From: Bdellovibrionota bacterium FG-1
GTDB taxonomy: Bacteria; Bdellovibrionota; UBA1018
Direction: 5' to 3'
Assembly: GCA_051382295.1 (NCBI GenBank)
Contig: JBBCAW010000120.1
Coordinates: 1 to 17,364, forward strand
Length of the DNA: 17,364 bases
Below, piece by piece: positions 337 to 16,298 of the stretch (positions are counted from its first letter, which is position 1; the number at the start of each line of letters is the position of its first letter). Below the pieces are notes generated by a model, which had not been told where the DNA came from, made no database searches, and worked only from the letters and a program-made list of their open reading frames with translations. A program made the translations under genes and the position numbers.

Positions 337-488
337 CGTGCTTCGATACCAGCCAGGTCTATCCGAAAAAAAGATTCCGAGTGCCGCTACAAAAAAGGAA
401 GGTTACAATCGAATCTGTATAGTTTCATCTACCCATTGTGAGCAGTCATGGTGACTGTTTGCAGTGGGTATTTTTTTCCTAACCCCCT

Positions 489-530
489 GGTACATTTTAA
501 GTGAGCAGAAGGGGTACATTTTAGCTGAGC
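489..530. repeat. Tandem 18-bp direct repeats of the IS21-type terminus
   Basis: GGTACATTTTAAGTGAGC (489-506) and GGTACATTTTAGCTGAGC (513-530), 16/18 identical. Confidence 0.85.
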
Positions 531-537
531 CGCAACG

Positions 538-935
538 AAGCAGAGCTCGATCGTAGTTGAGTCGAGCGCAAAGACGTCACTCTTAAACCGAAATCCATTT
601 TTTTTGGGAGCGAATCGCGCGGCTTCGATCAGACAGAACTGGAAAGCCTCTTCCAATACCGCGAGTGAGCGGACCTGATTGGCGTCAGCCAATGTGCTCT
701 TGCGGACCGGCCCGAAACCCATTGCTCGCATTTTTGAATCGCTGTGAGCAAATACACGCTCAATGGCGCGGATCGAGTCGTGTCCGGTGAGTTGGCCAAA
801 GAGCATGGCGCCAAACCACGTCCATGAATCCAATATTCTTACCCGCTTGTCGGCATCGTGTTTGGCGACCCAAGATTGAAATTCAGAACGCGGAATGAGC
901 TTGATTACTTGACTAAAAACTGTAGATTGCGACAT
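538..935 (-). pseudogene. IS4-family transposase (DUF4372 N-terminal domain), truncated after about 132 codons
   Basis: MSQSTVFSQVIKLIPRSEF...MLFGQLTGHDSIRAIE...VRKSTLADAN...ALDSTTIELC matches DUF4372 plus the first DDE aspartate. The rest of ORF 429..935 (FVAAQLKCTPSAHLKCT...) is read-through into the IS21 repeats. Confidence 0.85.
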
Positions 936-936
936 G

Positions 937-1007
937 GCTTGAAATCCTTTGGGAAAGAAAACGTGTCTAGATAACCGTCTTCTAACTCAGGATTTCAGGC
1001 TTTTTTT
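937..1007. promoter_or_regulatory. Inverted repeat overlapping the transposase RBS; terminator-like on the + strand
   Basis: GCTTGAAATCCT (937-948) pairs with AGGATTTCAGGC (989-1000), with an inner AGAAAACG/CGTCTTCT pairing and T7 at 1001-1007. Confidence 0.55.
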
Positions 1008-1092
1008 ATTTTTATGCTAAGCTCCGAACCGGACGCCAGTGAATGGTCTTATATTTAAATGCTAGTTCTCTGAACGATCTCATTTTTACAAG

Positions 1093-2058
1093 GTGGCCAA
1101 AATGCTAGTAAGCAAATCCAATAGATACGTCAAAACTGCATTTAACGATGAAGCCGAAATTGAAAAGGTCGTTCGCGACTATGCCGAGTACTTATTCGGA
1201 TCAAGCATCCTATTTATTCAAAAATCAAAAATAAAAACAACCGAGGGTACTGGAACAATTCCAGATGGATTTGTTATCGATATCGAATCCGGAGAATGGT
1301 ATATCCTGGAAGCGGAACTTGCGCATCACGGCACGTGGCAACACATCGTACCGCAAGTATCTAAGCAAATGACAGCCATTGAGTCACCTGCAACTCGAAT
1401 AGCAATTCTGGCTATTGCCGTCGACCTTGTGCGAACCTCAAAAGACGCTGCCAATGTGTTCGCTGAGCTTGGGATTTCTCAAATCGACATTCACGGTGTT
1501 CTAGAGAAAATATTATCCAACCGTCCGACCATTGCAATTCCGATTGACGCAATTCCTGCAGACTTGCAGTCTTGGGCTCGGACACTCAAGTTTGTTGTTA
1601 AAATTTGGCTTATTGAGAAATTTCAAAACCAAGATGGGTCGATGACCATTTATTCGATTCCAGAGGAGAATTCTCCGACCGTGATAACCCGTACTCTCGG
1701 AGATAATCCCGCAGCAACTATCATCACGAGGTCCTCCGAGCCCTACCAAGACATTTTCGAGGCTGGGTTAATTAAGGATGGACAGAAAATTTTTCTAGAA
1801 TATGGACCCCGTGGACGTGAAAAGAAGACTTTTACAGGCCTCATAAGAAAGGGCGGGGTTGAACTAGATGGTGTTGTTATGGCACTAAGTACTGCGGCCG
1901 TAGAATGCATGCGAAGAACTGGAAGCCAGAGGCAAACTGCAAATGGGTGGGCAATGTGGAAGACCGAAAATGGCGCTCTTTTGGATTCGATATACGCTAA
2001 ACTTTACTCCAACCGAGAGAATAACGAAGAAACAAAGACTGCCCCTGTGACCGAGTAA
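1093..2058 (+). CDS. PD-(D/E)XK-like nuclease fused to a C-terminal RAMA/DUF4357-like domain
   Basis: N-terminal E...IPDGFVID...YILEAEL resembles a restriction-endonuclease-fold active site. C-terminal LSTAA...TANGWAMWK matches the SxAA...NGWxxW RAMA signature. Start is GTG 1093 or ATG 1102. Confidence 0.7.
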   Translation: MAKMLVSKSNRYVKTAFNDEAEIEKVVRDYAEYLFGSSILFIQKSKIKTTEGTGTIPDGFVIDIESGEWYILEAELAHHGTWQHIVPQVSKQMTAIESPATRIAILAIAVDLVRTSKDAANVFAELGISQIDIHGVLEKILSNRPTIAIPIDAIPADLQSWARTLKFVVKIWLIEKFQNQDGSMTIYSIPEENSPTVITRTLGDNPAATIITRSSEPYQDIFEAGLIKDGQKIFLEYGPRGREKKTFTGLIRKGGVELDGVVMALSTAAVECMRRTGSQRQTANGWAMWKTENGALLDSIYAKLYSNRENNEETKTAPVTE

Positions 2059-2073
2059 TATTAAAACTCCATT

Positions 2074-2487
2074 CTAAAACGGAAAAAACCAACACGGCTG
2101 GGGATGGTTTTTCGCCTTGAGCGCCTTTTCAAATCGCTTCGGATTTTTAAGGGCATAGCCGTAACACTCATCCTCTTCAAAATACTTGCAGTCCACAATC
2201 TCGACCGTGCCCACAATCACGCCAGTCGGAAGATCGCCTGGACTAACCTTAAGCTTCTTCCAGAATTCCTCTGGCCCTGGGCTCATGGAAGCATACAAAT
2301 AGACCACCCCACGGATTTTGGTCGGGCGACTCCGGTATTCAAAGCGCTTCGTCCCTCGCAGAATTCCTTCAACATAAGGCTGCCTAATACTGATCGCCCT
2401 CATCCTGTCATCTGCTTTTGCCTCTGGTCTTTTGGTAGGACTCTTTGAAATCGTCTCTTTCCCTGGCCTTTTTTGCGCTTTCATCAT
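2074..2487 (-). CDS. ASCH domain protein
   Basis: AISIRQPY...ILRGTKRFEYRS (GxKxxExR) and GVIVGTVEIVDC. GAGGA RBS precedes ATG 2487; alternative start ATG 2403. Confidence 0.88.
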   Translation of the reverse strand: MMKAQKRPGKETISKSPTKRPEAKADDRMRAISIRQPYVEGILRGTKRFEYRSRPTKIRGVVYLYASMSPGPEEFWKKLKVSPGDLPTGVIVGTVEIVDCKYFEEDECYGYALKNPKRFEKALKAKNHPQPCWFFPF

Positions 2488-2669
2488 GATTCCTCGTCCT
2501 TTGATCCTATCGTCAACCCTTCTCAACGTCCAGGTTCAGGCGGTTCAAATGAGACCCCAGGTTCCGCCAACTTTTTGGCGTCAACGAAGATACTTCACGC
2601 CGACACCACCCTCACGTGGCGCAAAAGAATCGCGAACGATGCGTCCTTTGCCCCCACTCCCCCCAGTGC

Positions 2670-3395
2670 CTAAAACTTCCCCAACAGTTCATCCACCAGC
2701 TGGGGCACGAGTTCCGACGCCAAGCCCACTCGTTGATCATTAAAGTGGGACGAAATCTCCGATTCTTCGCGATTAACTTCGATTTTCCAAGAGGCTTCTG
2801 GCACTGACCGAACAAACCCGGCCGCCGGGTAAACATTTCCAGAGGTTCCCATCGAAACAAGAATCGCAGCATCCAAGAGCACGTCCATGATTTCGTCCAT
2901 ACTAAACGGGACCTCGCCAAACCAAACAATGTGGGGTCTCAGTGTTCCCACTTGGTTGCAGCAGACGCATTTTGTGGTGACTTCGATCAGCTGGCGCCAC
3001 TCGTACACTTCTTCTGTTTGCTCACATCGCACCTTGAGCAATTCGCCGTGCATGTGAATCAAATTTTTGGTTCCCGCCCGCTCGTGAAGATCGTCCACAT
3101 TTTGAGTAACAAGTAGAAACCGCCCCTTCCACTCTCGCTCAAGCCGAGCCAGAGCCTGATGTGCTGCATTGGGCTCAATCTGTGGTTCTAACAGTTGTGC
3201 CCGGCGAGCATTATAAAAGCGTTGCACCAGTCCTGGGTCTTTACGATATCCCTGAATCGACGCAACATCCTCAATATTATGATTTTCCCAAAGTCCGCCG
3301 TGGTCTCGAAAGGTCTTAATTCCGGATTCGGCGGATATGCCTGCGCCCGTTAATACAACGAGAGTCGATTTTTCAAAATGAGTGGGTTTAGTCAT
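2670..3395 (-). CDS. cobB: Sir2-family NAD-dependent protein deacylase, class III (copy 1)
   Basis: LTGAGISAESGIKTFR, FYNARR (YxxR), TQNVDDLHERAG, HMHGEL, LRPHIVWFGE, GTSGNVYPAAGF. Confidence 0.93.
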   Translation of the reverse strand: MTKPTHFEKSTLVVLTGAGISAESGIKTFRDHGGLWENHNIEDVASIQGYRKDPGLVQRFYNARRAQLLEPQIEPNAAHQALARLEREWKGRFLLVTQNVDDLHERAGTKNLIHMHGELLKVRCEQTEEVYEWRQLIEVTTKCVCCNQVGTLRPHIVWFGEVPFSMDEIMDVLLDAAILVSMGTSGNVYPAAGFVRSVPEASWKIEVNREESEISSHFNDQRVGLASELVPQLVDELLGKF

Positions 3396-3497: not shown

Positions 3498-3513
3498 CAA
3501 CGAACTTTCGTCG
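3498..3513. promoter_or_regulatory. Putative enhancer (UAS) box 1
   Basis: CAACGAA-CT-TTCGTCG, a near-copy of the perfect palindrome at 3577-3592. Confidence 0.55.
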
Positions 3514-3576
3514 CCCCCCCTCCTTCCACAATCCCCATGTAAATCACCCACTTCCCTACACATTGTAGGCAAACAC

Positions 3577-3592
3577 CGACGAAACTTCGTCG
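3577..3592. promoter_or_regulatory. Putative enhancer (UAS) box 2
   Basis: Perfect palindrome CGACGAA-AC-TTCGTCG about 100 bp upstream of the sigma54 promoter. Confidence 0.6.
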
Positions 3593-3690: not shown

Positions 3691-3707
3691 TTGGCATATG
3701 CGTTGCT
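3691..3707 (+). promoter_or_regulatory. Sigma54 (-24/-12) promoter of the ycaO operon
   Basis: TTGGCATATGCGTTGCT versus consensus YTGGCACGRNNNTTGCW. GG (3693-94) and GC (3705-06) are separated by exactly 10 nt, about 40 bp before the ycaO start. The operon encodes a GAFTGA activator. Confidence 0.8.
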
Positions 3708-3746: not shown

Positions 3747-4808
3747 GTGAAGACCGGTTTTTCAGAGATTATTTCCGCCCATGCCAATAGCCCCCGCTTC
3801 AATGACCTCGTACTCGGCACCTCAGTCACCCTTCCCACCGGACAAATACTCGAGGCCAAGGTCGAAAACCTAGAACTCTCCATCCGTCCGCAGGGACTTC
3901 GGCTTTCGAAATTTGCGTATACGTGCGACTTTCGCGTGGGTGACCACCTCGCACGCGGGTTCGGGGAGGCCGAGCACAAACTCATCGCCGTTCAAAAATG
4001 CCTCGCCGAGGGCTTCGAACGCGCCGTCTTCCGCTCACTCAAAGGCACCGCCTACCACACTCCCAATTCCAACGGATGGGCCGCCCACCTCAACCCCACC
4101 CTCGTGCAACGCTCCGGCCTCGAAGAACTCCTAGAACGAGATGCCATCCTCGTTCATTGGCTCACCCAAACCCCCATGACCGAAGTTCAACTGGACCAGG
4201 CCCCGGCGTGGTTAAGTCAATGGATCAACCAAGAGCTTCCACAAGGTGCTGTTTACAAAACCGTGCGAATCCTGATTTCAACCACCGGATACCTCCCCTC
4301 CGTAACCACCGTTCTCTTCGACCAAAACGGCTACGCGGTGATGTCCCATGCAACCGCCTCCACCCTAGAGCGGGCCGTCTACAAAGCCCTCGTCGAAACC
4401 TGCCGAATTGCCCAGCTCGCTATCGAAGGTTACTTTTTTGATTCGGCCAAACAACTTGCCGCCCCTTCCCCCCATGGCCCAAAAACCTATCCCGAGGATC
4501 ACGCCATGGTTTACGCACACCATGAGCGTTTTCCGGCTTGGATCTTTGGCCAGTCCTATGAGTGGACGCAGGCAGCACGCGCTTGGCAACTTCGACACAA
4601 AGTATTTTCTGCTGACACGGTTCCGCATCAGTATCATGCCGTCGTCAGTGAACCGCTCAGCGTGGGTTACTGCACCAGTGAGCAAATTCAAAATCTCTAC
4701 TTCGGTCGAACCGAGGTTGCCCAGGAAAAGGGCTTAATCAACGTCCGCCGATTAGAGTCAGTGAGGCCAGGGGGATCGATCAACCTCTTGCCCCATTGTG
4801 TTGCATAA
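3747..4808 (+). CDS. YcaO-family ATP-dependent peptide backbone-modifying enzyme (stand-alone, compact)
   Basis: Motifs LAEGFER, NSNGWAAH, EELLERDA and ALVETCR; C-terminus LLPHCVA. AAGGA RBS at 3735-3739 before the GTG. Confidence 0.85.
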   Translation: MKTGFSEIISAHANSPRFNDLVLGTSVTLPTGQILEAKVENLELSIRPQGLRLSKFAYTCDFRVGDHLARGFGEAEHKLIAVQKCLAEGFERAVFRSLKGTAYHTPNSNGWAAHLNPTLVQRSGLEELLERDAILVHWLTQTPMTEVQLDQAPAWLSQWINQELPQGAVYKTVRILISTTGYLPSVTTVLFDQNGYAVMSHATASTLERAVYKALVETCRIAQLAIEGYFFDSAKQLAAPSPHGPKTYPEDHAMVYAHHERFPAWIFGQSYEWTQAARAWQLRHKVFSADTVPHQYHAVVSEPLSVGYCTSEQIQNLYFGRTEVAQEKGLINVRRLESVRPGGSINLLPHCVA

Positions 4809-4830
4809 ACCGTAATCAATAGGGGGTAGA

Positions 4831-4998
4831 ATGTCCGTTATCAAAATGCTCTTAACACCGTTACTGGTGGTCTTCGCAGTCTGCTCGGGAAGTTCACGCG
4901 AACTCACCCAATTGGCCGATCAAGCGAAGGCGCAAACCGTGCTCACCATCTTCAGTCGTCCGGGTGGTGGTGGCGGCGGTGGAACTTGCGATTTCTAA
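4831..4998 (+). CDS. 55-aa putative RiPP/signal precursor peptide
   Basis: AGGGGG RBS before ATG 4831. Sequence MSVIKMLLTPLLVVFAVCSGSSRELTQLADQAKAQTVLTIFSRPGGGGGGGTCDF*. It fills the gap between ycaO and the next ATG (5001). Too short for the ORF track. Confidence 0.8.
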   Translation: MSVIKMLLTPLLVVFAVCSGSSRELTQLADQAKAQTVLTIFSRPGGGGGGGTCDF

Positions 4999-5000
4999 CC

Positions 5001-6551
5001 ATGTTTTATCCCGCTCTTACCATTCTCGGGCTTGCTCTGGATTTGATCGCTTCAAATCCGGCGACCGCCAAAGGAATTCCTATGAAAGAAATTCGAACCT
5101 ATCTGGCATTCACCTTTCCGGTTGACCCCGTCAAGATGGATACCATCGCCGAAATGGAATTATCCTACGCGCTTGCGTCGACCTTGGTGGAGTGGGACGA
5201 AAACAAACAAGTTCGAGCAGCCATCGCTGAAAGCTGGCATGCGACCTTAGACCAGACCATCGTTTTCACGCTTCGAAAAGAAACCAAGTGGTCAGATGGG
5301 AACCCCATCACCAGTGAGCAGATTAAGCGAAGTTTTGAACGGGCCCTCAAAACCCATCCTGAAGATTTGCGAAGCCTCACCAATCTCCTCGAAGCTGCGA
5401 ATCCAATCCAAGCGCTCAGCTTGCACCAACTCGCCTTCAGACTCAAAAAATCCGCGACTCAAGGCGATTTGCTAAAAAAACTCACCGAACCTAATTTTGG
5501 AATCCTCAAGATCCGTGAAAATGGGGGGCTCGATCTATCCGTCACAAGCGGTGCGTTTTTTCTCAAGGCCGCAGGCGAAAAGGAACTCATCCTGGATAGC
5601 AATCCACACTGGCATCGACACCAAGCGGACGTCCCCGACCGTGTGATCGCCCGTCGCCCAAAGCCAGACGCCCCCGAGGGGAGCGATCAAACCGTCCTTT
5701 TATACGATCCGTGGCCGAACCTCATAGAAACCTCGTCCCTAATCAACACCGACGTTTTGCAAAAGTACAAGGCCGATGGTTTTTCGCTCTGGGAGCGCCC
5801 CATCGACAAAGTGTTTTTGCTCTTTTTAGCCCGTAAGCGCGCCAATCCTGACCACTTTTCGTTGCTTCGATTTCTTCGATCCAAGCTCAATCGCCAAACC
5901 CTGACATCGAACTTAACGGGGTTTTCCTTAGGCGATCAGATTTTTCCCATGGGCTATGCCCTTCATGATTCTCATGACTCTGATGTTTCTAAGGCTCAGT
6001 TTCCAACCGATCCCGTCGCCCTTCCCGAATACTTCAAACACCACCCCATCGAGGTCATGGCCTCTCAAGGTCGCATTACTCCCCAGCTCAAAGAAAATCT
6101 GCGCCAATCTCTATTGGCCGCCACAGGAATTGAACCCAAATTTACATGGATTCAAAAACAAGACGCGGGCAAACACAAGCGCGCCGGTGATTTCGATGTG
6201 TATGTCGCGATGATGGGTTTGGCCGATCCAGATCCCGAAGGCGTCATGTCCTACTACTTTGAGGGCGAAACGCCCGTGGTTCCGTCGTCCAAGGAGGACG
6301 ACTTTGTAGCGAGGCTCGACCACGCCCGCAAAGACTCCGATCCTCAAGAACGCATTCAGCTCATGCGCAACATTGCGACGGATGCCGTTCGCAAGGGGCA
6401 TGTGCTTCCGCTCTTTCACCTTTCGACCTTTGGGGTGGGACGGCCCGAACTGGATTTTAGCCAGGTTCCGACGTCGGAAGAATCCGTGACCTTCTCCAAA
6501 ATTCGGTTCCGTGACTCTCGGAAGGCCGCCCAGGTAACCACCACGCCATGA
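5001..6551 (+). CDS. ABC-type family 5 (OppA/DppA-like) solute-binding protein with signal peptide; no permease or ATPase nearby
   Basis: LASTLVEWD...AIAESW...FTLRKETKWSDGNPITSEQIKRSF is the SBP_bac_5 signature. Hydrophobic N-terminus ending in ATA. ATG 5001 preferred over TTG 4986, which overlaps the peptide gene. Confidence 0.88.
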   Translation: MFYPALTILGLALDLIASNPATAKGIPMKEIRTYLAFTFPVDPVKMDTIAEMELSYALASTLVEWDENKQVRAAIAESWHATLDQTIVFTLRKETKWSDGNPITSEQIKRSFERALKTHPEDLRSLTNLLEAANPIQALSLHQLAFRLKKSATQGDLLKKLTEPNFGILKIRENGGLDLSVTSGAFFLKAAGEKELILDSNPHWHRHQADVPDRVIARRPKPDAPEGSDQTVLLYDPWPNLIETSSLINTDVLQKYKADGFSLWERPIDKVFLLFLARKRANPDHFSLLRFLRSKLNRQTLTSNLTGFSLGDQIFPMGYALHDSHDSDVSKAQFPTDPVALPEYFKHHPIEVMASQGRITPQLKENLRQSLLAATGIEPKFTWIQKQDAGKHKRAGDFDVYVAMMGLADPDPEGVMSYYFEGETPVVPSSKEDDFVARLDHARKDSDPQERIQLMRNIATDAVRKGHVLPLFHLSTFGVGRPELDFSQVPTSEESVTFSKIRFRDSRKAAQVTTTP

Positions 6552-8011
6552 TCAAAACCCGGGTCCCACCGAGCCTTCAGGGCTATTTTCGCAAACAAGC
6601 CGTCCAATGGGCGGTGATTGGTTTCGCCCTGACGGTGGTGCTTGCCCTCCCCTGCTTTCTCTACACTGCAAAGGTCGCATCCGAGCGACAACTCATGACC
6701 GTGGCCCGTTCGGCCGCGCGGGCCTTTCGTCCGATGTTTATTGAGGGCAGTGATGTTCGAAGCGCTGAGCTTCAAATGCGACGAGCGCTCGACCTTCAGA
6801 ACGGAGAAAGCGCCGTTGTTCGCGACCCCTCCCTTCAGGCGATTTACCCACTCACTGAAGCCGACAAAACCATTCATTGCGGAGAGCCCGGTCGAAATTG
6901 TTGGTCCAAAGGATTTCAATCAGTGAGCGTGCTTTACCCCATCTACTTTGACGAGGACACCAAGGCCCCGCTGTGGGGATACCTCGAAGTGACCTTGAAG
7001 CCAGTTTTGGACGGGACCATTCTTTCGATCCTGGCAGTCGTGGTGCTGATCGGTTTTGTGGTTCAGGCCTATGGTTTGCTGTCGGCCTTGCGACGAGCCG
7101 GCCAAATGGTTACGGACCGACTTGGCCTTTGGGCTGACCAGCTCATTCATCGCCCCACTCATGGCGACGCTACGGCTGATGCGGCCCCTTTTGATGAGTT
7201 TCTCCCGATGCAAACCGCAGTCAATTCACTTCATGAGGAAATTGAAAAGCTCCAGAGGAGCGCAGCGCAGGAAGCTAAGGACACCGCTCAAACCTCGATT
7301 CTTCGGGAGATTGGGCATGATTTGAAAACACCCCTTTCGCAACTCCGAAAATTCCTCATGCTTCATTTTGATCGGCTTCGGCAAAAAGGACAGCTCGATG
7401 AGAGCGATGCCGCTCGGATCAATCGCGTTTTGAATCGCGCAGGTGATTTGGTTCAAAAACTGAAGCTGATTTACCCCAATCAAAGTTCGTCGATTCAGGC
7501 CGCTCCTTGCAAGATTCAGGATGAGGCTGCCTTGATTCTCTCTGACCTCCAGCACGAAGATGAAGTCGTCCGCAAGGGCATGACACTCAAGTCATCCTTG
7601 GCCACTAGCGTTTCGGCTGCCTTAATCTCGAAGGCGGGTTTTTACCAAGTTTTAGAAAACCTGATTCGCAACGCGGTCGAAGCCGCGTCCAATCACGGCG
7701 GAAATGTCACCGTCACGGTAGCCAATGACCAGGGAATCCCCACCCTTTCAGTGCGTGATGACGGACCCGGTATCCCGTTGGCAATTCAGAGCAAGATCTT
7801 TGATTTTGATTTTACCACCAAACTCTCGCAGGGAACCGGGCTCGGCCTCGGTATTGTCAAACGCATTTGCCAAGACGCGGGCGCTGAGATTCGGGTTGTA
7901 AGCACACCCGGTCACGGTGCGGAGTTTATCGTTACGTTTAGGCCCGCACCATCTATTCCTGCTATCCGTCAGTCTGAGGAGGTTCAAAGTTATGAAACCC
8001 AGTCCCTATAA
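6548..8011 (+). CDS. Membrane sensor histidine kinase (two TM helices, periplasmic domain, HisKA, HATPase)
   Basis: H-box IGHDLKTPL, N-box ENLIRNAVEA, G1 DDGPGIP, F-box IFDFDFTTK, G2 GTGLGLGIV. ATGA overlap with the SBP stop. Confidence 0.93.
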   Translation: MIKTRVPPSLQGYFRKQAVQWAVIGFALTVVLALPCFLYTAKVASERQLMTVARSAARAFRPMFIEGSDVRSAELQMRRALDLQNGESAVVRDPSLQAIYPLTEADKTIHCGEPGRNCWSKGFQSVSVLYPIYFDEDTKAPLWGYLEVTLKPVLDGTILSILAVVVLIGFVVQAYGLLSALRRAGQMVTDRLGLWADQLIHRPTHGDATADAAPFDEFLPMQTAVNSLHEEIEKLQRSAAQEAKDTAQTSILREIGHDLKTPLSQLRKFLMLHFDRLRQKGQLDESDAARINRVLNRAGDLVQKLKLIYPNQSSSIQAAPCKIQDEAALILSDLQHEDEVVRKGMTLKSSLATSVSAALISKAGFYQVLENLIRNAVEAASNHGGNVTVTVANDQGIPTLSVRDDGPGIPLAIQSKIFDFDFTTKLSQGTGLGLGIVKRICQDAGAEIRVVSTPGHGAEFIVTFRPAPSIPAIRQSEEVQSYETQSL

Positions 8012-9368
8012 CATTCTGATCGTTGACGACGACCCCACTAATTTGGAAGCCACGCAGGGCCTACTCGAACATTGGGGGTACAAGGTACGCACGGCGGGAA
8101 GCGGAGACGAAGCGATTGCCCTTCTTAAGTCGGCCTCTGAGGAATTTGCCCTCATCTTGCTCGATTACAGAATGCCTGAAAAGAATGGCGCACAGACCGC
8201 ACGCGAAATCCGCGAGTTTAACCAAGAATCGGTGATCGCGATGTACTCCTGCGATGATACGCAAGCAGCGGTGGTTCAAAGTCACCGGGCCGGGGCGCTT
8301 GATTTTATCGATAAAGATGATGTGGGATATTTGCGCGAGGCAGTCGAAAAATCCTGTCTCAAATTTGAAGAAGGACGAACTCTCAAACCCTTTATCGCTG
8401 CAGACAAAGCCGAAAAGCTCATTGCCTCAGCAAATATGATTGGTTGCTCTCAAGCGCTCGCAGAAGTCGCCAGGCAAGTGCATCTCTTCCGCGACAGCAG
8501 GGCAACGCTCCTCATTACAGGTGAGTCCGGCTCGGGCAAAGGACACGTGGCGCGAGCCCTTCACAATGGTAAGGGCAAATTTATCGCGGTCAATTGCGCT
8601 GCCTACGCAAAGGCAAATAATCTTCTAGAATCCGAACTCTTCGGGCACGAAAAGGGAGCGTTCACTGGCGCAGTGGTTCGCAAGGTCGGACTCCTGGAAG
8701 CCGCGATGGGTGGGACGGTATTTCTCGATGAGATCCACCACATGAGTTTGGATTCGCAAGCCCAGCTCCTCCGTGCGGTGGATGAAAAGAAAATCCGGCG
8801 ACTTGGAGGTAATGGAGAAGAATATGCCATCGACTTTCGGCTGATCGTCGCGACGAAACCGGACATTCAGGACCGGATCGCGAAGGGCACCTTCTTGGAG
8901 GATCTCTATTTTCGGCTTCGCTTCCTCCGCATCCAAGTTCCCTCCCTGAGCGATCGACCTGATGACATCCCCCCACTACTCGCCCATTTCTGCCAAAAAT
9001 TCTCACAACAAACAGGCAAGCGAAAGACGCTCACCATGCGAGCTGTGAAGATCCTACAAGGCCACGACTGGCCGGGGAACGTTCGCGATCTGGAAGGCTA
9101 TGTGGAGAACCTATTGACGATTTGCCCAGCGGACATGATCGACTCAAAGCATTTGGACCTTCAGTTTTTTGAAGCAAATGCCGGCAAAGCATCACGAATG
9201 ACCTACCCTGAATTCAAGGCAAAGCAGGAACAGGAGCGCCGAGAGTTTTTTCTATCCGCCCTCAAACGAAATAAGTCGGCAGCTCAGGCTGCCCAACGGA
9301 TCGGGATGCCGGCCACCACGTTGAGGAGCATTTTGGATAAAATTGGAACCGAGTTTTCGAACCCATGA
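7992..9368 (+). CDS. NtrC-family sigma54-dependent response regulator (REC-AAA+-HTH)
   Basis: ILIVDDD and LLDYRMP (receiver), GESGSGKG Walker A, ESELFGHEKGAFTGA, FLDEI Walker B, WPGNVRDL, C-terminal HTH (AAQRIGMPATTL). GAGGAGG RBS at 7976-7982 supports ATG 7992. Confidence 0.95.
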   Translation: MKPSPYNILIVDDDPTNLEATQGLLEHWGYKVRTAGSGDEAIALLKSASEEFALILLDYRMPEKNGAQTAREIREFNQESVIAMYSCDDTQAAVVQSHRAGALDFIDKDDVGYLREAVEKSCLKFEEGRTLKPFIAADKAEKLIASANMIGCSQALAEVARQVHLFRDSRATLLITGESGSGKGHVARALHNGKGKFIAVNCAAYAKANNLLESELFGHEKGAFTGAVVRKVGLLEAAMGGTVFLDEIHHMSLDSQAQLLRAVDEKKIRRLGGNGEEYAIDFRLIVATKPDIQDRIAKGTFLEDLYFRLRFLRIQVPSLSDRPDDIPPLLAHFCQKFSQQTGKRKTLTMRAVKILQGHDWPGNVRDLEGYVENLLTICPADMIDSKHLDLQFFEANAGKASRMTYPEFKAKQEQERREFFLSALKRNKSAAQAAQRIGMPATTLRSILDKIGTEFSNP

Positions 9369-10114
9369 GTGAGTTCAAAGATCTGTTTTCTAAAAAATCC
9401 GGAGCCTACGCAAAATTTCGGCCGAAGTATCCGGACCTTTTATTTCGCTATCTGGCCTCGCTGGTCGATGAGCACGAACTCGCGTGGGATGTGGGCACCG
9501 GAAATGGCCAGGCCGCTGTGAAGATTGCCGATCATTTTAAGCGTGTGGTGGCGACGGATCCCTCCGCCAAACAAATTTCGAGCGCTGCCCGTCGTCCAAA
9601 TGTGGAATATCGCGTGGGCACCGCCGAGAAGCCCGTATTCAAGGATCGAAGTCTTGATTTGATTACGGTGGCGCAGGCGTTTCACTGGTTTCGGCAGGAC
9701 GAGTTTTTTGCCGAGGCCAAGCGCATGCTGAAGCCCGGCGGGGTGTTGGCGCTTTGGTGCTACGAACTCATCAAGATCAGTCCCGAGATCGATGCAGTGA
9801 TCCACAAGCTTTACAAAGACATCCTGGGTCCTTATTGGGAGAAAGAGCGTGCGCTTGTTGAGGAGGGCTACCGAAACGTGGTTTTTCCGTTCAAAGAAAT
9901 CACGGCGCCTCAGTTCGAAATTACAGCCGAGTGGTCCTTTGCTCACTTGATTGGATACCTCGGCACTTGGTCGGCGCTTCAAGCCTATGTCCAAGCACAA
10001 AAATCCAACCCATTAGAAGCGATGTATGGCGAGTTGAAGACGGCGTGGGGAGATGCGCCGAAACGATCGGTGCGGTGGGAGATTGGGATGAGGGTTGGGC
10101 GGGGGAATTTGTAG
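9365..10114 (+). CDS. Class I SAM-dependent methyltransferase (Methyltransf_11-like)
   Basis: YAKFRPKYP, AWDVGTGNGQAA, DLITVAQAFHWF, LKPGGVLA. ATGA overlap with the regulator stop. Confidence 0.92.
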   Translation: MSEFKDLFSKKSGAYAKFRPKYPDLLFRYLASLVDEHELAWDVGTGNGQAAVKIADHFKRVVATDPSAKQISSAARRPNVEYRVGTAEKPVFKDRSLDLITVAQAFHWFRQDEFFAEAKRMLKPGGVLALWCYELIKISPEIDAVIHKLYKDILGPYWEKERALVEEGYRNVVFPFKEITAPQFEITAEWSFAHLIGYLGTWSALQAYVQAQKSNPLEAMYGELKTAWGDAPKRSVRWEIGMRVGRGNL

Positions 10115-10230: not shown

Positions 10231-10935
10231 TCATTTCCAAAGATTAAATAGCATCTTGTCCTCACTAAATAAGTCTATCTCTAGATCTCCCTCAAATTCA
10301 ATAAGCCCCCACTCCTTGCCCAAAGCCTCGTTAACAAGTTTTGTATTGGGCCGCTTTGACCTCGGCATCACAACGTAACCCTTGACTTTGTCACGGCTGA
10401 CAGTCTTTCCGTACATCGTATTTATTGCATTAATTTCAATACCAATGAGATCGCGATAACTTTTCAACTCACCGCAGGCCGTACTGAGAGAATTTCTATT
10501 CGGTTTTAGTTCGAGGACAATATATTCACAACTGCTCTGGTCATAGGCAAGCAGGTCAAAACGTCGATGTGCCCCTACTCCTGCGAAACGACGTTCCGCA
10601 TCCAGAAGTTCCCACTTAAACTCAAGAAACTGACCTCGTGGCGCGGGAAACGTCATCATCATTTTGTTCAGCATCGCCATTCGAACAAGGTAGGCTTGCA
10701 GTCGATACTCTTTGATGTCATTGTTTTTTTTATCTGGAGCCACTTTGTCTTCCTTTATTTCGCAAAAGACATATGGATTCTTAAGATCCAAACTGCGAGG
10801 AGTAATATCCCCAGCCCCGACCGCACAATGATATACGTTCACTTTTCCGGCAGCACATTGCTCGCTATTGAGTCGCCGAGCTTCTTCATACGCATTCTTA
10901 AGTTTTTCAGTGTAGGTAATAGTCATCTTTGCCAT
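10231..10935 (-). CDS. Hypothetical protein with a PD-(D/E)XK (NucS-like) nuclease motif
   Basis: KWE...RRFDLLAYD...IVLELKP...GELKSY. AT-rich. Start at 10935 or 10926; GAGGAG spacing favours 10926. Confidence 0.65.
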   Translation of the reverse strand: MAKMTITYTEKLKNAYEEARRLNSEQCAAGKVNVYHCAVGAGDITPRSLDLKNPYVFCEIKEDKVAPDKKNNDIKEYRLQAYLVRMAMLNKMMMTFPAPRGQFLEFKWELLDAERRFAGVGAHRRFDLLAYDQSSCEYIVLELKPNRNSLSTACGELKSYRDLIGIEINAINTMYGKTVSRDKVKGYVVMPRSKRPNTKLVNEALGKEWGLIEFEGDLEIDLFSEDKMLFNLWK

Positions 10936-10974
10936 CTCCTCGGCTATTTTTTTAATAGATAGATTGCGTGGACC

Positions 10975-12237
10975 TCAAAGTGAAAATGTTTTGCCATCCC
11001 GCATACACACGACATTGGTGCCCGTGAACTCCATTTTATATTGGTCCGGAAATTCCGTATGAATTGGAATGAGAACCTTCGGAGCCAGTGCCCGGACATA
11101 CGCTACGAGATCCGCTACGACCGCATGACCGCTCGTATGCGCGTAGACAAACTTCACGCCCGGAACGGCCCCCTTTTGGAACTCGGCCATACGTGCACTT
11201 CCGTATTGCTCAGGAGCACCGGCTTTGAGGTAACCAAGCCATTCTGAATAGAGCACGGTCACTGGTGCCTGAGAAATGAAGGTTTCGATCTTTTTCGCTG
11301 ACGCAATCTTCCCATGCAGAAGATAACGCGATGGGTTTACTCGGATCTCCTTCTCGGTAACGACATGCTTAAAAACACTGTCGATGAAATCCAAAAATAC
11401 TGGACCATGCGTCTTCATAATGCCGTACTGTCTGCCGCTCGACCTTCCATTTCTCAGCACTGCAATATGATTCCAGTCAAATGCTCGAATCCCAGGTGAC
11501 ACGCGACTCACTCGATCCAACACCCACGCGGTGTAAAAATCGATGACAAAAACCTTGTCGCTAGCAACACATGCGTTATGAGCTGCAACCAAGCGATCGA
11601 TATTCTGCGAGGAGCAAATAAGAAAACCCGCGTTGTGTTGGTCTGCAATCGCCGAACAGATCTTGGCTTCCACCGAACCTTCGTCGGGGAACTCGCTATT
11701 CCCACGATTCAACATGGTCCCTTCCATAAAAAGCACATCTATATTGCCAGGTGGCTGACCGACAAACCTTTCAAACAACACTCTCTTTTTGCCATGCCCC
11801 CGAAAATCTCCACTATAAAACAGTCGTTTACCTTCAGCTTCAATTAGAAATCCGTAGGCATCCACTGCTGAGTGGTCCATCAAAAACGGGGTGACGCGGA
11901 ATGGCCCAGCTGGGAACGGCACACCCTTCTCGAAAAATTGAAATGAATTACTATGAAGAGGTCTATCCAAAAATATCCGCGTTGCATCGATCAAGTCTTT
12001 GGCCAATGCGCCAATGTAAACCGGAATGTGCTCCGGAACCGAATCTAGCAAGCCAAAGTGATCCGAGTGTGGATGACTAATAAGTACTGCATCCGCACCA
12101 AGGGCCGCGATATCCACAAATTTTGAGGATGGGGACAAAGGTATTCCGACATCTATGAGGATTCGTTTACCACCACTCTCCAGCTCAATGCAGGTACCTC
12201 CTATTTCGTGGGTTCCGCGATGGACAATGATCTTCAT
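10975..12237 (-). CDS. Metallo-beta-lactamase/beta-CASP (RNase J-like) hydrolase
   Basis: HRGTHEIGGTCIE, SHPHSDH (HxHxDH), DHS, YSGDFRGHG, MEGT, HTSGHA, PIHTE. GGAG RBS. Confidence 0.9.
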   Translation of the reverse strand: MKIIVHRGTHEIGGTCIELESGGKRILIDVGIPLSPSSKFVDIAALGADAVLISHPHSDHFGLLDSVPEHIPVYIGALAKDLIDATRIFLDRPLHSNSFQFFEKGVPFPAGPFRVTPFLMDHSAVDAYGFLIEAEGKRLFYSGDFRGHGKKRVLFERFVGQPPGNIDVLFMEGTMLNRGNSEFPDEGSVEAKICSAIADQHNAGFLICSSQNIDRLVAAHNACVASDKVFVIDFYTAWVLDRVSRVSPGIRAFDWNHIAVLRNGRSSGRQYGIMKTHGPVFLDFIDSVFKHVVTEKEIRVNPSRYLLHGKIASAKKIETFISQAPVTVLYSEWLGYLKAGAPEQYGSARMAEFQKGAVPGVKFVYAHTSGHAVVADLVAYVRALAPKVLIPIHTEFPDQYKMEFTGTNVVCMRDGKTFSL

Positions 12238-12263
12238 TTAAAAATCTCCATGAACACGAATGT

Positions 12264-12575
12264 TCAATTTCCTCGAACAGCATTAACCGCCTGGTAAACG
12301 ATTCCAAAAGTGAACTGCTCAGGGGATCCCGCTTCGGCGATAGCATATGTGCTGACATGCGGGATCGCCTTCACGATAGGTATAAAACTTTCAGTCATCT
12401 CATAGATGATTTGATCGATGGCACAATCACGGCCGTCCTCCTTAGCACTTTGAATAAATGCCGGCGCCCCCATTGTCGCCTCCGCTACGCCCTTAGCGGT
12501 ATCCGTCAAAATCGCCTCGATCTGGGCCAAAGACTCGATTTTGGAAAGCCGGCCAACTACCTCGCTAAATGTCAC
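12264..12575 (-). CDS. Small hypothetical protein, first gene of the MBL operon
   Basis: GGGAGG RBS before GTG; 103 aa; ends 26 bp before the MBL start on the same strand. Confidence 0.7.
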   Translation of the reverse strand: MTFSEVVGRLSKIESLAQIEAILTDTAKGVAEATMGAPAFIQSAKEDGRDCAIDQIIYEMTESFIPIVKAIPHVSTYAIAEAGSPEQFTFGIVYQAVNAVRGN

Positions 12576-12812
12576 TGAAAACCTCCCATCCCTCTACGAC
12601 TGTAATGGCCTATCGTTAATCACCAGTCTAATGCACTTTAGCGAACAGGGGGTAAATCTAAGCCACTGAAACTGTAGGGGTAATAAATATATTTTCAGAG
12701 GAATGCGCGAAAACACAACACGGCACTCAAGCTACCTCCTGGATCACTGAAAGCAACGAAATGGTTGGCAAAGGTCGAAATCGTCATTGTCGTTAGCTAT
12801 TCCGAAATCTGC

Positions 12813-13034
12813 TTATAAAACCATCCCCTGTTTCGCTACAGATCGAGTGCGAAAATTTTGAATAGGGATGATTCGCACGCCAAAAAGCAACTCGGGCTTC
12901 TTCAGTTCGAGCGCGAACCAGCGGGTGATTGCCTCCCCGAAAAATGCGTGGGGAACAATGACGCTCGCCCGCGAGAGGCGGGACCGCTTGGCTAGAATGG
13001 AGGACAACGCATCGAAATGGGTCTTCGCGACCAT
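12813..13034 (-). CDS. Possible 73-aa basic hypothetical protein
   Basis: AAGGAAGG purine tract upstream of ATG 13034 (MVAKTHFDALSS...). No recognised domain. Confidence 0.3.
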   Translation of the reverse strand: MVAKTHFDALSSILAKRSRLSRASVIVPHAFFGEAITRWFALELKKPELLFGVRIIPIQNFRTRSVAKQGMVL

Positions 13035-13311
13035 TGCGGTTTTACCTTCCTTGGTGCCGCCCCGGCATCGAGCTGGGTGGTAATCGTTTCGCGCGCAACC
13101 TTGAGGCATGACGTAGATTATCCTCTGCGCCGCTGACATCGGGTGTCCATGAAACGAGTAGGAATTATTTTGTCATTTCAGGCGGTTGTTGACAAGGCGG
13201 AAGCAGATGACGGCGGTGACTATTCGCCGGAAAGGAATCTGTAATAAAACAAGGCCTATGACCTGTGATGTCACAAGATCGAACTATAATGGCTGAGCTG
13301 GAGGTATTCTT

Positions 13312-13596
13312 ATGTCTTTCGAGGCTCAGCTGCTGAAGTGCTCGCCACAAGTTCTAACGGCCGTGATTGAAAAGACAGGCGTCACAACTTTGGCGATGGC
13401 GTTGTTCAGCGCGGAAGAAGACCTGCTAATCGGATCACATGGACTAATTTTCAAGTTGCCTGAACGATTAATCGTAGAGTTCATAAATGCGCGCCGGTTT
13501 CTCGAACCAATCATCGAGCGTGAAAACCTTCATGCACAGGAAATTCTTTTGAACCTGATTGCTGAGGAGTCCTTTACTGTCAATGAGGGAGGGTAA
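13312..13596 (+). CDS. Stand-alone FliG C-terminal-domain-like protein
   Basis: GGAGG RBS. TTLAMALFSAEEDL...KLPERL...RFLEPI...HAQEILLNLI parallels the FliG-C pattern LalALkga..el...mskRa...lGPv...AQ.eIv. Confidence 0.65.
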   Translation: MSFEAQLLKCSPQVLTAVIEKTGVTTLAMALFSAEEDLLIGSHGLIFKLPERLIVEFINARRFLEPIIERENLHAQEILLNLIAEESFTVNEGG

Positions 13597-13601
13597 CCTA
13601 C

Positions 13602-13620
13602 CTGACAGGTGCCCTGTCAG
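13602..13620. repeat. Perfect inverted repeat in the fliG-C-like/fliM-like spacer
   Basis: CTGACAGG-TGC-CCTGTCAG. Confidence 0.6.
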
Positions 13621-13645
13621 CGACAGACCAGATGAGGACAATTGC

Positions 13646-14575
13646 ATGAACACGACAACTAGAAGGCCGGACAGAATTCCACTTTATGACAACATCATGG
13701 AGCGCTACACTCGGCCGCTGAGAGAAGCCCTTGTCACCTATCTCGGCCAGACCTGCATGGTTTCCATCATAAGTATCGACTCCTTGACGCTATCTGAATT
13801 CCGAAACACACTACCTGTTCCGAGCCTCTACTCCATTTTCGAATCAGAAGCGCTCGACGAGTCAATGGCATGCGTCTATGAGTCCAAGCTCGCATACGCA
13901 CTTATAAATGCTCAGTTGGGGGGCAGCCATTCCCCGGTCTTCGACTGCATCGATGGGAAGGAGTTTACGGCAATCGAGTCAGCACTCCTACAGAGACTTC
14001 ACGCGATATCAGCAAAGTGCCTTGATCATGCATTTTTAAAGCTTGTTGACCTTGGGATACATTATAGGGACAGCGACGTATTTCCCGATGCAATGAAGAT
14101 CTGCGCTGGAGACGAAGCGGTTCAGGTAACAACCATTGAAGTAAAGCTAATTGGCCTCTCCGGGACTATAGCTCTAGTGGCTCCACCTTCTTTTCTGAAG
14201 CCCATTGAATCCCTCCTCAAAGAAGACCTTGGATCGACCAAGGCCAGAGCGTCATGGCATTTGCGCGACCGGAAGTTACCTGACTTAGCAGCCCTTTTAT
14301 CGTCGATATCCGACGACCACCTTTTTAATATTGTGGTTTGTGAACATCCGCAATGCCAATCCTTCCTAATTGGAAATCTCCCCATAGAGCGAGCTGAGGC
14401 CATGATCCAACGACTACCCGAACGGTTCCGCACGATTGTCGCTGACCAATCCAAGAGTTCCGGGCTGATTCGGAGATCGATAGGGGCATTGGTGACAAGA
14501 ACACTTGAGGACTATATAAAACGTCACAATCTTGCCGAGCCCGACTATCGTGCTGAATTGAAGAAAACAAAATGA
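13646..14575 (+). CDS. FliM middle (CheC-like) domain fused to a FliG middle-domain-like region
   Basis: IMERYTR...LTLSEFRNTLPVPS...LAYALINAQLGG...KEFTAIE...GTIALVAP is FliM-M. The C-terminal part has EHPQ...LIGNLPIERAEAMIQRLPE, the FliG-M signature. GAGGA RBS at 13634-13638. Confidence 0.8.
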   Translation: MNTTTRRPDRIPLYDNIMERYTRPLREALVTYLGQTCMVSIISIDSLTLSEFRNTLPVPSLYSIFESEALDESMACVYESKLAYALINAQLGGSHSPVFDCIDGKEFTAIESALLQRLHAISAKCLDHAFLKLVDLGIHYRDSDVFPDAMKICAGDEAVQVTTIEVKLIGLSGTIALVAPPSFLKPIESLLKEDLGSTKARASWHLRDRKLPDLAALLSSISDDHLFNIVVCEHPQCQSFLIGNLPIERAEAMIQRLPERFRTIVADQSKSSGLIRRSIGALVTRTLEDYIKRHNLAEPDYRAELKKTK

Positions 14576-14629
14576 TTGTAAAGTGGAGGACGATGTCGAC
14601 TTTTAAGCAGCGAAAGACTCAGACACGCT

Positions 14630-14669
14630 AAAACGGGGTTCGTGCGAAGGCACCAACTCCGTTTTTTTT
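14630..14669 (+). terminator. Intrinsic terminator, possibly bidirectional
   Basis: AAAACGGGGTT-C-GTGC-GAAG-GCAC-C-AACTCCGTTTT with a T8 run, between the convergent fliM-like and cobB genes. Confidence 0.75.
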
Positions 14670-14764
14670 GTTAACATTCGGCATTGAGTGTAGGCAAGGT
14701 ACTGTACTGTCAACAAGGTCGGGCCCTAACACCATTTCAACTCAATAAGTCCCTTTTTTGCTCT

Positions 14765-15493
14765 TCATAGGTCAAGTAGCTCATCGACCAATCTGGGTAC
14801 GCATTCACTGGCCGCGCCAATCCGATGTTCGTCAAACCTCTTGCTGACCACTGAGGCCTCCAAGTTTATTTCAATCTTCCTTGCCCGACGGGCTTGGCCC
14901 ACAAAACCTGCCGCAGGATAGACATGCCCCGACGTACCAATGGAGGCAAAGAGGTCACAGGTGGCAAGTGCGGCATCAATGCTGTCCATTTCAAGCGGCA
15001 TCTCACCAAACCAGACGATATGGGGTCGCAAGGTACCTGTTTGATTGCAGCAGGGGCAGAGGCTGGCGGCCTCGATGGGGCCAGTCCATTTACTCACACG
15101 GCGAGTCTTGAGGCACCGGACCTTTTGAAGTTCACCGTGCATATGGAGTAGCATCCGTGATCCAGCCCGGTCATGCAAATCATCAACATTTTGAGTAACC
15201 AGAAGGAAGTCGCCCTTCCAAGCCTTTTCCAATTTTACCAATGCCTGATGCGCCAGATTAGGTTGAACAGATGGATCCAGAAGCTGTGCCCGGCGCTGGT
15301 TGTAGAATCGCTGAACGACTTCGGGGTTTCTTTGAAAACCCGCCAGCGAGGCCACTTCCTCAATTGAGTGATTTTCCCAAAGGCCGTTATGGTCGCGGAA
15401 GGTCTTGATGCCAGATTCAGCAGAGACTCCAGCACCGGTCAGGATCACGATGGATCGATATTTAGAATTGGAATGTTTCAATTGGGCTTTCAT
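14765..15493 (-). CDS. cobB: Sir2-family NAD-dependent protein deacylase, class III (copy 2)
   Basis: LTGAGVSAESGIKTFR, FYNQRR, TQNVDDLHDRAG, HMHGEL, LRPHIVWFGEMP, GTSGHVYPAAGF. Confidence 0.93.
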   Translation of the reverse strand: MKAQLKHSNSKYRSIVILTGAGVSAESGIKTFRDHNGLWENHSIEEVASLAGFQRNPEVVQRFYNQRRAQLLDPSVQPNLAHQALVKLEKAWKGDFLLVTQNVDDLHDRAGSRMLLHMHGELQKVRCLKTRRVSKWTGPIEAASLCPCCNQTGTLRPHIVWFGEMPLEMDSIDAALATCDLFASIGTSGHVYPAAGFVGQARRARKIEINLEASVVSKRFDEHRIGAASECVPRLVDELLDL

Positions 15494-15746
15494 AACTCAA
15501 TATTGGATGAAATAAACATATTTTCACCGTGACTTCAGCCTACATTCCGCAGCTTGAGCGGGCAAGTTTTCGTCTGAAATTAGACCTGATTTCGATGAGA
15601 TAGCGATTCATGTGTCGTTGCAAGGTGCCTCCGCCAACGCCTCCTGCAGGATTTCATCGAGCTTTTTCTGAAGCGAGCGGTATTTTTTGATTCGCTTCTC
15701 ACATTCCAGGGAGGAATCAATCAATGGCAAAGAAGGCTAGGTAGGC

Positions 15747-16298
15747 TTAAAGCTCGATTTGAGTTGAGTATTTTTCCTTCCACCGCTCTAAATCACCGTT
15801 CTTAAAGCTAGTCCCGAGTTCAGTTGCTTCGTTTTTTACGCGGTCAGCCTTCTTCATTGTGTAGGGGCACAGTGTCTTTTCCTTGTCGCGCTCATAAAGG
15901 ATCTGCTCCTTCGACAGCTTAAAAACAGTGGTATTCGGCTGCACTCGAAAGTTGTAGAGGTCCACCAAAACGAAATAATACTCCTGCACGTCATGCCATG
16001 GCCGAATTCCACGGAAAGTCACACCCGATCCAGGCAACGGGGTAATGATTGAACTTTTAATTTCAATCACGGTCCCATCACCCCTTCTTCCATCACCGTG
16101 GGAGGCATGACCGCGGACCTTATCCCAATGATTCCGACTCAAGATCCTCTTCTCTATTTTTGTTCCACGGCTCCTGATGTTCATGAAGCTAGCTACGCGA
16201 ATAAAGTCGTCCCATTCAAGAGCATCCAGGACCTGATCGGATGAGTAGTGAAGTTGAATCTCCCAGAATTCCCGATAAAACTCCAAAATCGACCTCAT
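15747..16298 (-). CDS. Hypothetical restriction-endonuclease-like PD-(D/E)XK protein
   Basis: GTKIE...GDG...IEIKSS...FRGIRPWHD. ATG 16298 overlaps the upstream TGA (ATGA). Confidence 0.6.
   Translation of the reverse strand: MRSILEFYREFWEIQLHYSSDQVLDALEWDDFIRVASFMNIRSRGTKIEKRILSRNHWDKVRGHASHGDGRRGDGTVIEIKSSIITPLPGSGVTFRGIRPWHDVQEYYFVLVDLYNFRVQPNTTVFKLSKEQILYERDKEKTLCPYTMKKADRVKNEATELGTSFKNGDLERWKEKYSTQIEL

Follow-up and report, generated by a model that had tools for sequence, protein, structure and literature searches.

We describe here a gene unit, conserved among bacteria of the Bdellovibrionota type, in which the gene for a stand-alone YcaO-family enzyme is followed by genes for a small precursor peptide, a family-5 solute-binding protein (SBP), a histidine kinase and a sigma-54-dependent regulator. 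It was found in the window, by which we mean the whole 17,364-nt stretch of DNA analysed, where the 55-residue peptide encoded behind ycaO is almost certainly the product of a real gene and very likely the substrate of the adjoining YcaO. We lean towards the interpretation that the cassette is an autoinducing signalling system, in which the YcaO-modified peptide would acquire an azoline in the cytoplasm, be exported by Sec, be sensed by the SBP–kinase pair and so re-induce its own operon. The observations behind this interpretation are the gene order and its conservation, the fold and ATP-site residues of the YcaO, the signal-like N-terminus and [ST]-C pair of the peptide, the promoter and the palindromes. 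It is the company of an SBP, a kinase, a regulator and a sigma-54 promoter with palindromes that speaks for a signal rather than an antibiotic.

The precursor gene and its tail

The precursor ORF (4831..4998, + strand) begins with ATG just after a Shine-Dalgarno-like AGGGGGT (4821..4827, + strand) and occupies the gap between the ycaO stop at 4808 and the SBP start at 5001, with 2 nt between its own stop and the SBP start. A basic n-region is followed by an uncharged h-region (residues 6–22), a conserved S-x-S-[RK]-x-L segment, a variable linker and the G-G-T-C core, and the peptide ends in RP-G7-TCDF. The ribosome-binding site, the basic-then-hydrophobic N-terminus and the G7-TCDF end of this ORF had been described in an initial annotation and were confirmed on the sequence, as was its statement that the glycine codons are mixed (GGT GGT GGT GGC GGC GGT GGA). 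No model in Pfam or NCBIfam matches the peptide.

Close YcaO orthologues are present in 6 of 60 related genomes, and in these first six the same gap holds a signal-like ORF (6/6). Collection scans gave 20 loci from genomes, most of them labelled Oligoflexia, Bdellovibrionales, Bacteriovorax or Bdellovibrionota, and 17 from metagenomes; a profile search found related YcaOs in 65 of 301 genomes of the phylum, and 40 of the matched regions were retrieved. In a quick tree of 64 YcaOs, the enzyme at 3747–4808 falls in a clade of 32 rows with a support of 99. Counts over 33 loci refer to those close-clade loci in which the end of ycaO is intact and the ORF behind it complete, repeat finds of one cassette being counted once; three duplicate loci, the frameshifted L047, the out-of-clade L037 and the loci with a contig-truncated or partial ycaO (L022, L030, L034, L048, L049, L050, L052, L053 and L054) were excluded, and L019 and L021 are near-identical and hence not independent rows. 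The initial annotation had named as a check a scan for equivalent ORFs behind related ycaO genes, and such an ORF, of 45–140 residues and with a signal-like N-terminus, lies directly 3′ of ycaO in 33/33 of these loci. Third codon positions carry most of the nucleotide differences in all five homologous precursor pairs tested (18/4/36 by codon position in the L032/L045 pair).

The glycine tract is not what is conserved in the tail, as a run of at least four glycines occurs in 3/33 close-clade precursors and G7 is confined to one copy among the 33; poly-Gly was rejected as a functional motif. An [ST]-C pair within the last 11 residues is present in 21/33 precursors, compared with a mean of 1.8 and a maximum of 7 in 2000 shuffles and with 6 cases among 173 small signal-like ORFs taken from the source genome as controls, and this bears out the earlier proposal that Thr-Cys is the target of modification. 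The frequency of Cys per residue is 0.076 in the last 10 residues and 0.006 in the middle of the precursors. Short precursors have in common the leader, the S-x-S-[RK]-x-L segment and G-[GA]-[ST]-C, and in long precursors a domain of about 60 residues is inserted between an ordinary-looking signal peptide and a similar tail. The sister loci L093 and L091 end in PSC and PSS, and such an interchange of Cys and Ser at one place agrees with what is expected for azoline chemistry. In ten of the 33, there is no Cys among the last 10 residues and the tail closes with P-[ST]-[ST] or [ST]-G; five of these ten carry Gly in the Cys position, which suggests that the tails do not all undergo one chemistry and that modification might be directed at the backbone. 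At L051 (8825–9247) the domain-plus-core unit of the precursor is doubled, giving two APSC cores. The distant Cys-less precursors of L098, L099, L104, L108, L125 and L128 have a common Thr-Glu near the C-terminus, possibly a second type of core.

The YcaO enzyme and its likely chemistry

The YcaO (3747..4808, + strand; 353 residues ending in PHCVA; PF02624, E 3.6e-14) is of the stand-alone type: its AlphaFold model (pLDDT 84.6) aligns end to end with a YcaO domain alone, and the five cassette genes are contiguous. Run against PDB sequences, the YcaO profile gave 0 matches, and the placement came from the fold search alone, in which the model matched 6ci7 (Z 21.0), 4v1t (Z 20.1) and McbD (6gos, Z 19.9); with a Foldseek E of 1e-9, methanogen YcaOs, LynD and McbD are tied as closest folds (within 1.1 Z). 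In the ESM Atlas, the YcaO look-alikes are generic Bdellovibrionota clusters, and one long precursor gave no usable match. The ATP-site residues E88, E91, R92, E127, E130 and R131 are retained in 63–64 of 64 YcaO homologues. Close to the C-terminus, which aligns in structure comparison with the ends of McbD and LynD, P349 is found in 53/64 and H350 in 62/64 homologues; the chain stops three residues past the His, distant members end in PHPxx, and the length of the tail is fixed throughout. The enzyme has no terminal proline and scores 55 bits against a TOMM model with a cut-off of 219. Its N-terminus is not hydrophobic and has no signal peptide, and it should therefore act in the cytoplasm.

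Partner proteins were looked for in the window and among flanking proteins of 15 close loci, 46 of 69 of which were scanned. A ThiF-type E1/RRE partner was found neither at the locus nor among the 46 proteins, and neither a SagB/McbC-type dehydrogenase (by Pfam) nor TfuA was found in the window or in this set, which also gave no permease, ATPase or methyltransferase match. Nitroreductases that L021 and L024 encode behind the regulator were considered as azoline dehydrogenases and rejected, as they are NfsA-like and not SagB. Given that no dehydrogenase partner was seen, the expected product is an azoline and not an azole. We regard azoline formation by the cassette YcaO as likely, if not assured, the reservation being due to the missing terminal proline. 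For McbD, the C-terminal residue has been proposed as the general base, and the enzyme deleted for it still processes Cys but no longer Ser (PMC6395948). Proline-rich YcaO C-termini have been described as a mark of azoline formers, and the bottromycin YcaOs function without a partner (PMC8442711); stand-alone D proteins as such have been described as little known (PMC4603692).

A different chemistry within the same circuit, in which the YcaO would activate an amide of the backbone close to the C-terminus and so bring about an amidine, a thioamide or ATP-dependent cleavage, seems rather unlikely to us. Partner-less YcaOs do provide examples, with ItfB forming a C-terminal backbone amidine (PMC10352776), MusD cleaving peptides (PMC10885120) and others, including the uL16 thioamidase of Escherichia coli, thioamidating proteins (PMC13063428), and the five close precursors with [ST]-G for [ST]-C would fit. 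The thioamide-forming methanogen YcaOs are also the top structural matches of the model, with LynD and McbD within 1.1 Z. However, the C-terminal enrichment of Cys, its interchange with Ser/Thr, the lack of TfuA among the 46 flanking proteins scanned and the fixed length of the YcaO tail all speak against such a chemistry. With the partner-less bottromycin heterocyclase/macroamidine synthase, ItfB and uL16 thioamidase the cassette shares a compact YcaO without a C protein, and it differs in having no radical-SAM or protease genes, a substrate with a signal peptide and a sensing module; from the thioamitides, which are made by YcaO–TfuA, it differs in that no adjacent TfuA was found.

The initial annotation had likened the peptide to microcin B17. 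There is a likeness to this and other TOMM systems in the YcaO fold, with McbD among the top matches, in the intact ATP-site glutamates, in the McbD-aligned C-terminal tail and in a Gly-rich stretch ahead of a Thr-Cys target. The analogy fails, however, on the unique G7 and on the partners, as no McbB/E1 or McbC/SagB counterpart was seen, and we consider an antimicrobial TOMM produced under two-component control to be very improbable. The cassette lacks a C protein (E1/RRE), a dehydrogenase, an exporter and an immunity gene and has a receptor–kinase–regulator set instead; its peptide has a Sec-type leader and a single conserved [ST]-C near the C-terminus as the one heterocyclisable pair, whereas TOMM cores offer many Cys, Ser and Thr sites. 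Moreover, the classical TOMM loci of the phylum look different: 4 of 31 distant loci resemble such loci, two of them with SagB dehydrogenases (L096 and L107).

A class I SAM methyltransferase gene (9365..10114, + strand; Pfam) overlaps the regulator stop. No homologue is labelled in loci L018–L054 or was found among the 46 flanking proteins scanned, and it is probably co-transcribed cargo outside the conserved cassette. As a pathway enzyme it was rejected because it is not found beside relatives, and for the same reason the +14 Da modification for which the initial annotation had invoked it is unlikely to belong to the pathway.

Export, sensing and promoter

According to simple patterns rather than SignalP, the n-region is net positive in 32/33 precursors and the h-region uncharged in 32/33, while a strict simple pattern found an A-x-A-like site in 27/33 and none in 6/33. 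In short precursors this site comes late, at about residues 29–34 and some 12 residues beyond the h-region (residue 34 is the candidate, by simple pattern, in the 55-residue peptide), and in long precursors it lies at 21–26 behind ordinary cleavable-looking signals. Neither a lipobox nor a twin-arginine motif occurs in the 33 close-clade precursors checked, and a lipoprotein reading of 'FAVC' was rejected given the absence of a lipobox and a Cys18 that is not conserved. The claim of the initial annotation that a YcaO-associated precursor here carries a Sec-type leader is very likely correct, the n- and h-regions fitting Sec in 32/33, and its suggestion that there is no dedicated exporter agrees with the cassette, in which none sits. 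In the source genome, the SBP–kinase modules on C8 and C119, which have signal-less small peptides, adjoin MFS-like genes, whereas a signal-peptide ORF is found in each of the four YcaO modules and no exporter was seen with them; this contrast, drawn from few cases, is consistent with a Sec leader taking the place of an exporter.

The same annotation had called cytosolic modification before export unusual. There is a precedent in the bufferins, which are modified by MNIO enzymes, exported by Sec and bind copper, although the literature searched gave none for YcaO enzymes; in the same source, Sec-type RiPP precursors are called highly unusual, with experimental proof for bufferins only (PMC12452194). 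The cassette shares with bufferins and oxazolin a precursor whose N-terminus is signal-like where a typical leader would stand, and a modification that would have to come ahead of general export, and it differs from them by a YcaO instead of an MNIO plus partner, for which there was no Pfam match in the window, by a single Cys and by an SBP–kinase pair instead of copper tolerance.

The SBP (5001..6551, + strand; PF00496, E 2.7e-20) has a signal-like N-terminus, and no permease or ATPase gene for it is present in the cassette. Its model (pLDDT 88.0) is structurally closest to AapF with a bound signalling molecule (7kz9, Z 31.9), followed by NikA and OppA (Z 30.5–30.0); that NikA and CntA score almost level with peptide binders tells against the signalling interpretation. 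The histidine kinase encoded next to it (6548..8011, + strand) has transmembrane helices at residues 22–40 and 153–171, which flank a periplasmic domain of about 110 residues with a conserved Cys pair. LuxP–LuxQ is an example of a sensor kinase activated by an SBP. In CBP–ChiS, AioX–AioS and BctC–BctE, as here, the SBP gene adjoins that of a membrane kinase whose periplasmic domain is small; the ligands of such kinases are nutrients or small molecules, whereas that of the cassette would be encoded and made by the operon itself. Activation of sensor kinases by family-5 SBPs has been described, e.g. for CBP–ChiS (PMC8050422), and the SBP–kinase pair of the cassette quite probably senses the peptide.

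The SBP also gives rise to the idea that the product is a metal-binding RiPP with a thiazoline chelator, the SBP and kinase sensing its metal complex in a metal-homeostasis module. Nickel-binding NikA models head the NCBIfam matches of the SBP, all of them far under the cut-off, its family includes CntA and the methanobactin-binding MbnE, and the Sec-exported bufferins provide a copper-binding parallel (PMC12452194). Against this, a single Cys in very variable tails would make a poor chelator, neither a transporter nor a metal-related gene is conserved nearby, and each of the four full-length YcaO-like genes of the source genome is accompanied by SBP and kinase genes and by a signal-peptide ORF, in four cassettes with tails that all differ, so that we hold such a function to be decidedly doubtful. 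Improbable, too, in our judgement is a role of the peptide as a membrane-anchored, MgrB-like modulator of the kinase, the SBP sensing an external ligand and the YcaO modifying the modulator or some other protein. The peptide resembles MgrB in size, in its C-terminal Cys and in its hydrophobic N-terminal helix, the kinase carries its periplasmic Cys pair, and the cleavage sites of short precursors are uncertain; yet the same clade has long precursors whose signals look ordinary and cleavable, with A-x-A at 21–26, the tails are highly variable, and a catalytically intact YcaO lies beside the peptide throughout the examined loci, which were chosen by their YcaO. MgrB, itself a small protein, acts as a repressor of PhoQ (10.1101/2022.12.22.521624).

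The regulator (7992..9368, + strand) consists of a receiver, an AAA+ domain with GAFTGA and a C-terminal HTH. When co-variation of core and SBP was examined, loci with TG[IM] cores formed a single clade of the SBP tree (support 95), but this clade is not rejected by the regulator data (p-AU 0.44). Upstream of ycaO, a motif match identifies a promoter, TTGGCATATGCGTTGCT (3691..3707, + strand), which we take to be of the sigma-54 type from the −24/−12 consensus, and rpoN is present in the source genome. The motif precedes ycaO in 32/35 close loci, against a genomic background of 0.0055 per 150 bp, and is missing in L032, L095 and L094, the last without upstream DNA. Two palindromes, both candidate enhancers without assigned strand, lie about 194 nt (CAACGAACTTTCGTCG, 3498..3513) and 115 nt (CGACGAAACTTCGTCG, 3577..3592) 5′ of this site. 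The score of the pair at 3498–3592 was matched by 0/30 shuffles, and in the 4.44 Mb genome the paired palindrome occurs only there and ahead of a truncated ycaO on C89. Across close loci, the sigma-54 site usually has paired palindromes, about 115 and 195–220 nt upstream of it; the automatic pair finder beat shuffles (at most 1/30) in 16/28 loci and returned AT-rich noise in the others, and the palindromes of L031, L038, L020 and L032 are degenerate or were assigned by eye.

Five palindrome types were distinguished, each going with one type of recognition helix in the regulator HTH, for example CGACGAA-N2-TTCGTCG with P-x-[ST]-T-L-[RK]-S and TGCGC-N8-GCGCA with E-S-[ST]-L-R; as the types were set by patterns written after the sequences had been seen, the match is descriptive. 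The pairing is consistent with self-activation, yet kin would share both traits in any case. A regulon search of the source genome gave no firm target other than ycaO promoters. At C115:46852–47116, two degenerate palindrome copies and a canonical sigma-54 site precede a predicted lipoprotein gene, possibly a regulon member, and this region has a TGTAGG/CCTACA inverted motif in common with window positions 3555–3570. The second promoter and palindrome pair on C89 (L013, about 33000–33440) lies before a ycaO truncated after some 62 homologous residues and without a peptide behind it, and L034 is a remnant resembling this truncated gene.

Distribution and proposed mechanism

In the close clade, the precursor is followed by an SBP in 31/33, a kinase in 28/33 and a regulator in 25/33 loci, and the loci without the full set are contig ends except L029 and L095; ycaO, precursor, family-5 SBP, histidine kinase and sigma-54 regulator are the conserved unit. 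In the window, stops and starts of the cassette genes (3747–10114) overlap or nearly abut. The slot after the regulator varies (NfsA-like reductase, reverse transcriptase, DksA-type, LysM-like or DUF4423 genes), and we read these changing genes as variable cargo. Among the 31 distant loci, 24 have an SBP and a kinase in gene orders that differ from the close clade, 21 of these with an automatically found signal-like ORF, to which L116 adds one, and 15 with a Cys within the last 20 residues of the precursor; in another 3/31, ycaO and a kinase are present and an SBP was not detected. The viral contigs searched gave no relative.

Apart from the cassette described here, the source genome has YcaO, SBP5 and kinase modules on C54 (L127), C33 (L128) and C21 (L129), with ORFs of 92, 46 and about 56 residues, of which the C54 peptide only has a terminal Cys. 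Further SBP5–kinase modules are accompanied by a weak DUF4135 match, an MFS-like gene and a 25–33-residue acidic peptide on C8 (L130), an MFS-like gene and a similar 30-residue peptide on C119 (L131), B12 radical SAM and peptidase M19 genes on C10 (L132), an MFS–SBP fusion and a double methyltransferase on C62 (L133) and an alpha/beta hydrolase on C19 (L134), which suggests a wider kit of synthase, SBP and kinase. The cassettes of L027 and L036, labelled Lysobacteraceae and Streptomyces, nest among those of Bdellovibrionota and may reflect mislabelled bins or transfer. Mobile and defence-type genes flank the cassette in the window (429–3395 and 10231–17182: a DUF4372 transposase fragment, RAMA, ASCH, two Sir2 paralogues at 2670–3395 and 14765–15493, and an MBL-fold nuclease) and in L018, L020, L027 and L038 (RepB/ParB, BrxA, IS66, resolvase, RadC and Cap15), and such surroundings fit its patchy distribution. 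A stand-alone FliM-like gene of the window (13559–14575), with a weak C-terminal match to the FliG middle domain, has no flagellar operon around it. In L018 (13460–15588), a reverse transcriptase gene directly 3′ of the regulator and, on the other strand, a gene weakly resembling bAvd are possibly a diversity-generating element.

Autoinduction by modified peptides is textbook matter for Gram-positive bacteria. In staphylococcal agr, as in the cassette, precursor, maturase, kinase and regulator are encoded in one operon, the tails of the signal vary and the operon seems to activate itself; the cassette differs in its Gram-negative host, the YcaO chemistry, the predicted Sec export, a periplasmic SBP as putative receptor subunit and the sigma-54 output. 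It would work like agr-type autoinduction, and by the features tested it is not a microcin B17/TOMM, thioamitide or bufferin system. AgrB and AgrD are treated in PMC10885120. No description of the cassette was found in the literature searched, which takes in few subscription papers; mining tables of the kind in PMC4603692 could list these YcaOs. For YcaO together with Bdellovibrio, the search gave only a sponge survey, in the passages of which the two are not linked (PMC9426513), and a cattle study.

The chemistry, export, binding and autoregulation of the signalling reading are steps that we infer. In the cytoplasm, the partner-less YcaO would recognise the segment past the h-region or, in long precursors, the small domain found in its stead. 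At the expense of ATP, the enzyme would close a thiazoline ring on Cys53 by cyclodehydration and possibly a methyloxazoline ring on Thr52; without a dehydrogenase, the ring would remain an azoline. Sec and signal peptidase would then export the modified peptide post-translationally, so that a dedicated exporter would not be needed. The SBP would take up the modified tail and dock on the small periplasmic domain of the kinase, and the phosphorylated regulator, bound to both palindromes, would switch on the sigma-54 promoter before ycaO in a positive loop that would also drive the variable cargo genes at the end of the operon. Positive feedback alone does not amount to density sensing, and the peptide might act solely in the periplasm of its own cell. 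More tentatively still, and with rather less confidence than we place in the circuit itself, we suggest a phylum-wide, quorum-sensing-like class defined by a minimal YcaO, a Sec-exported azoline peptide, an orphan SBP with its kinase and a sigma-54 loop with an enhancer code of its own. The variability of the tails and the presence of several cassettes in a genome would then provide separate, kin-specific channels, in effect a peptide language for predatory-type Gram-negative bacteria.

A partner-less minimal heterocyclase, with natural Cys, Ser and Thr variants of its substrate, would be a useful enzyme model, and the signalling cassette is directly testable with a 353-residue enzyme, a 55-residue substrate and a mapped promoter, candidate enhancers and receptor. 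If the signalling reading is true, YcaO chemistry, general secretion, an SBP–kinase receptor and sigma-54 feedback would be joined in one cassette, and a Gram-negative phylum for which the literature searched gave no self-made signal would have one.
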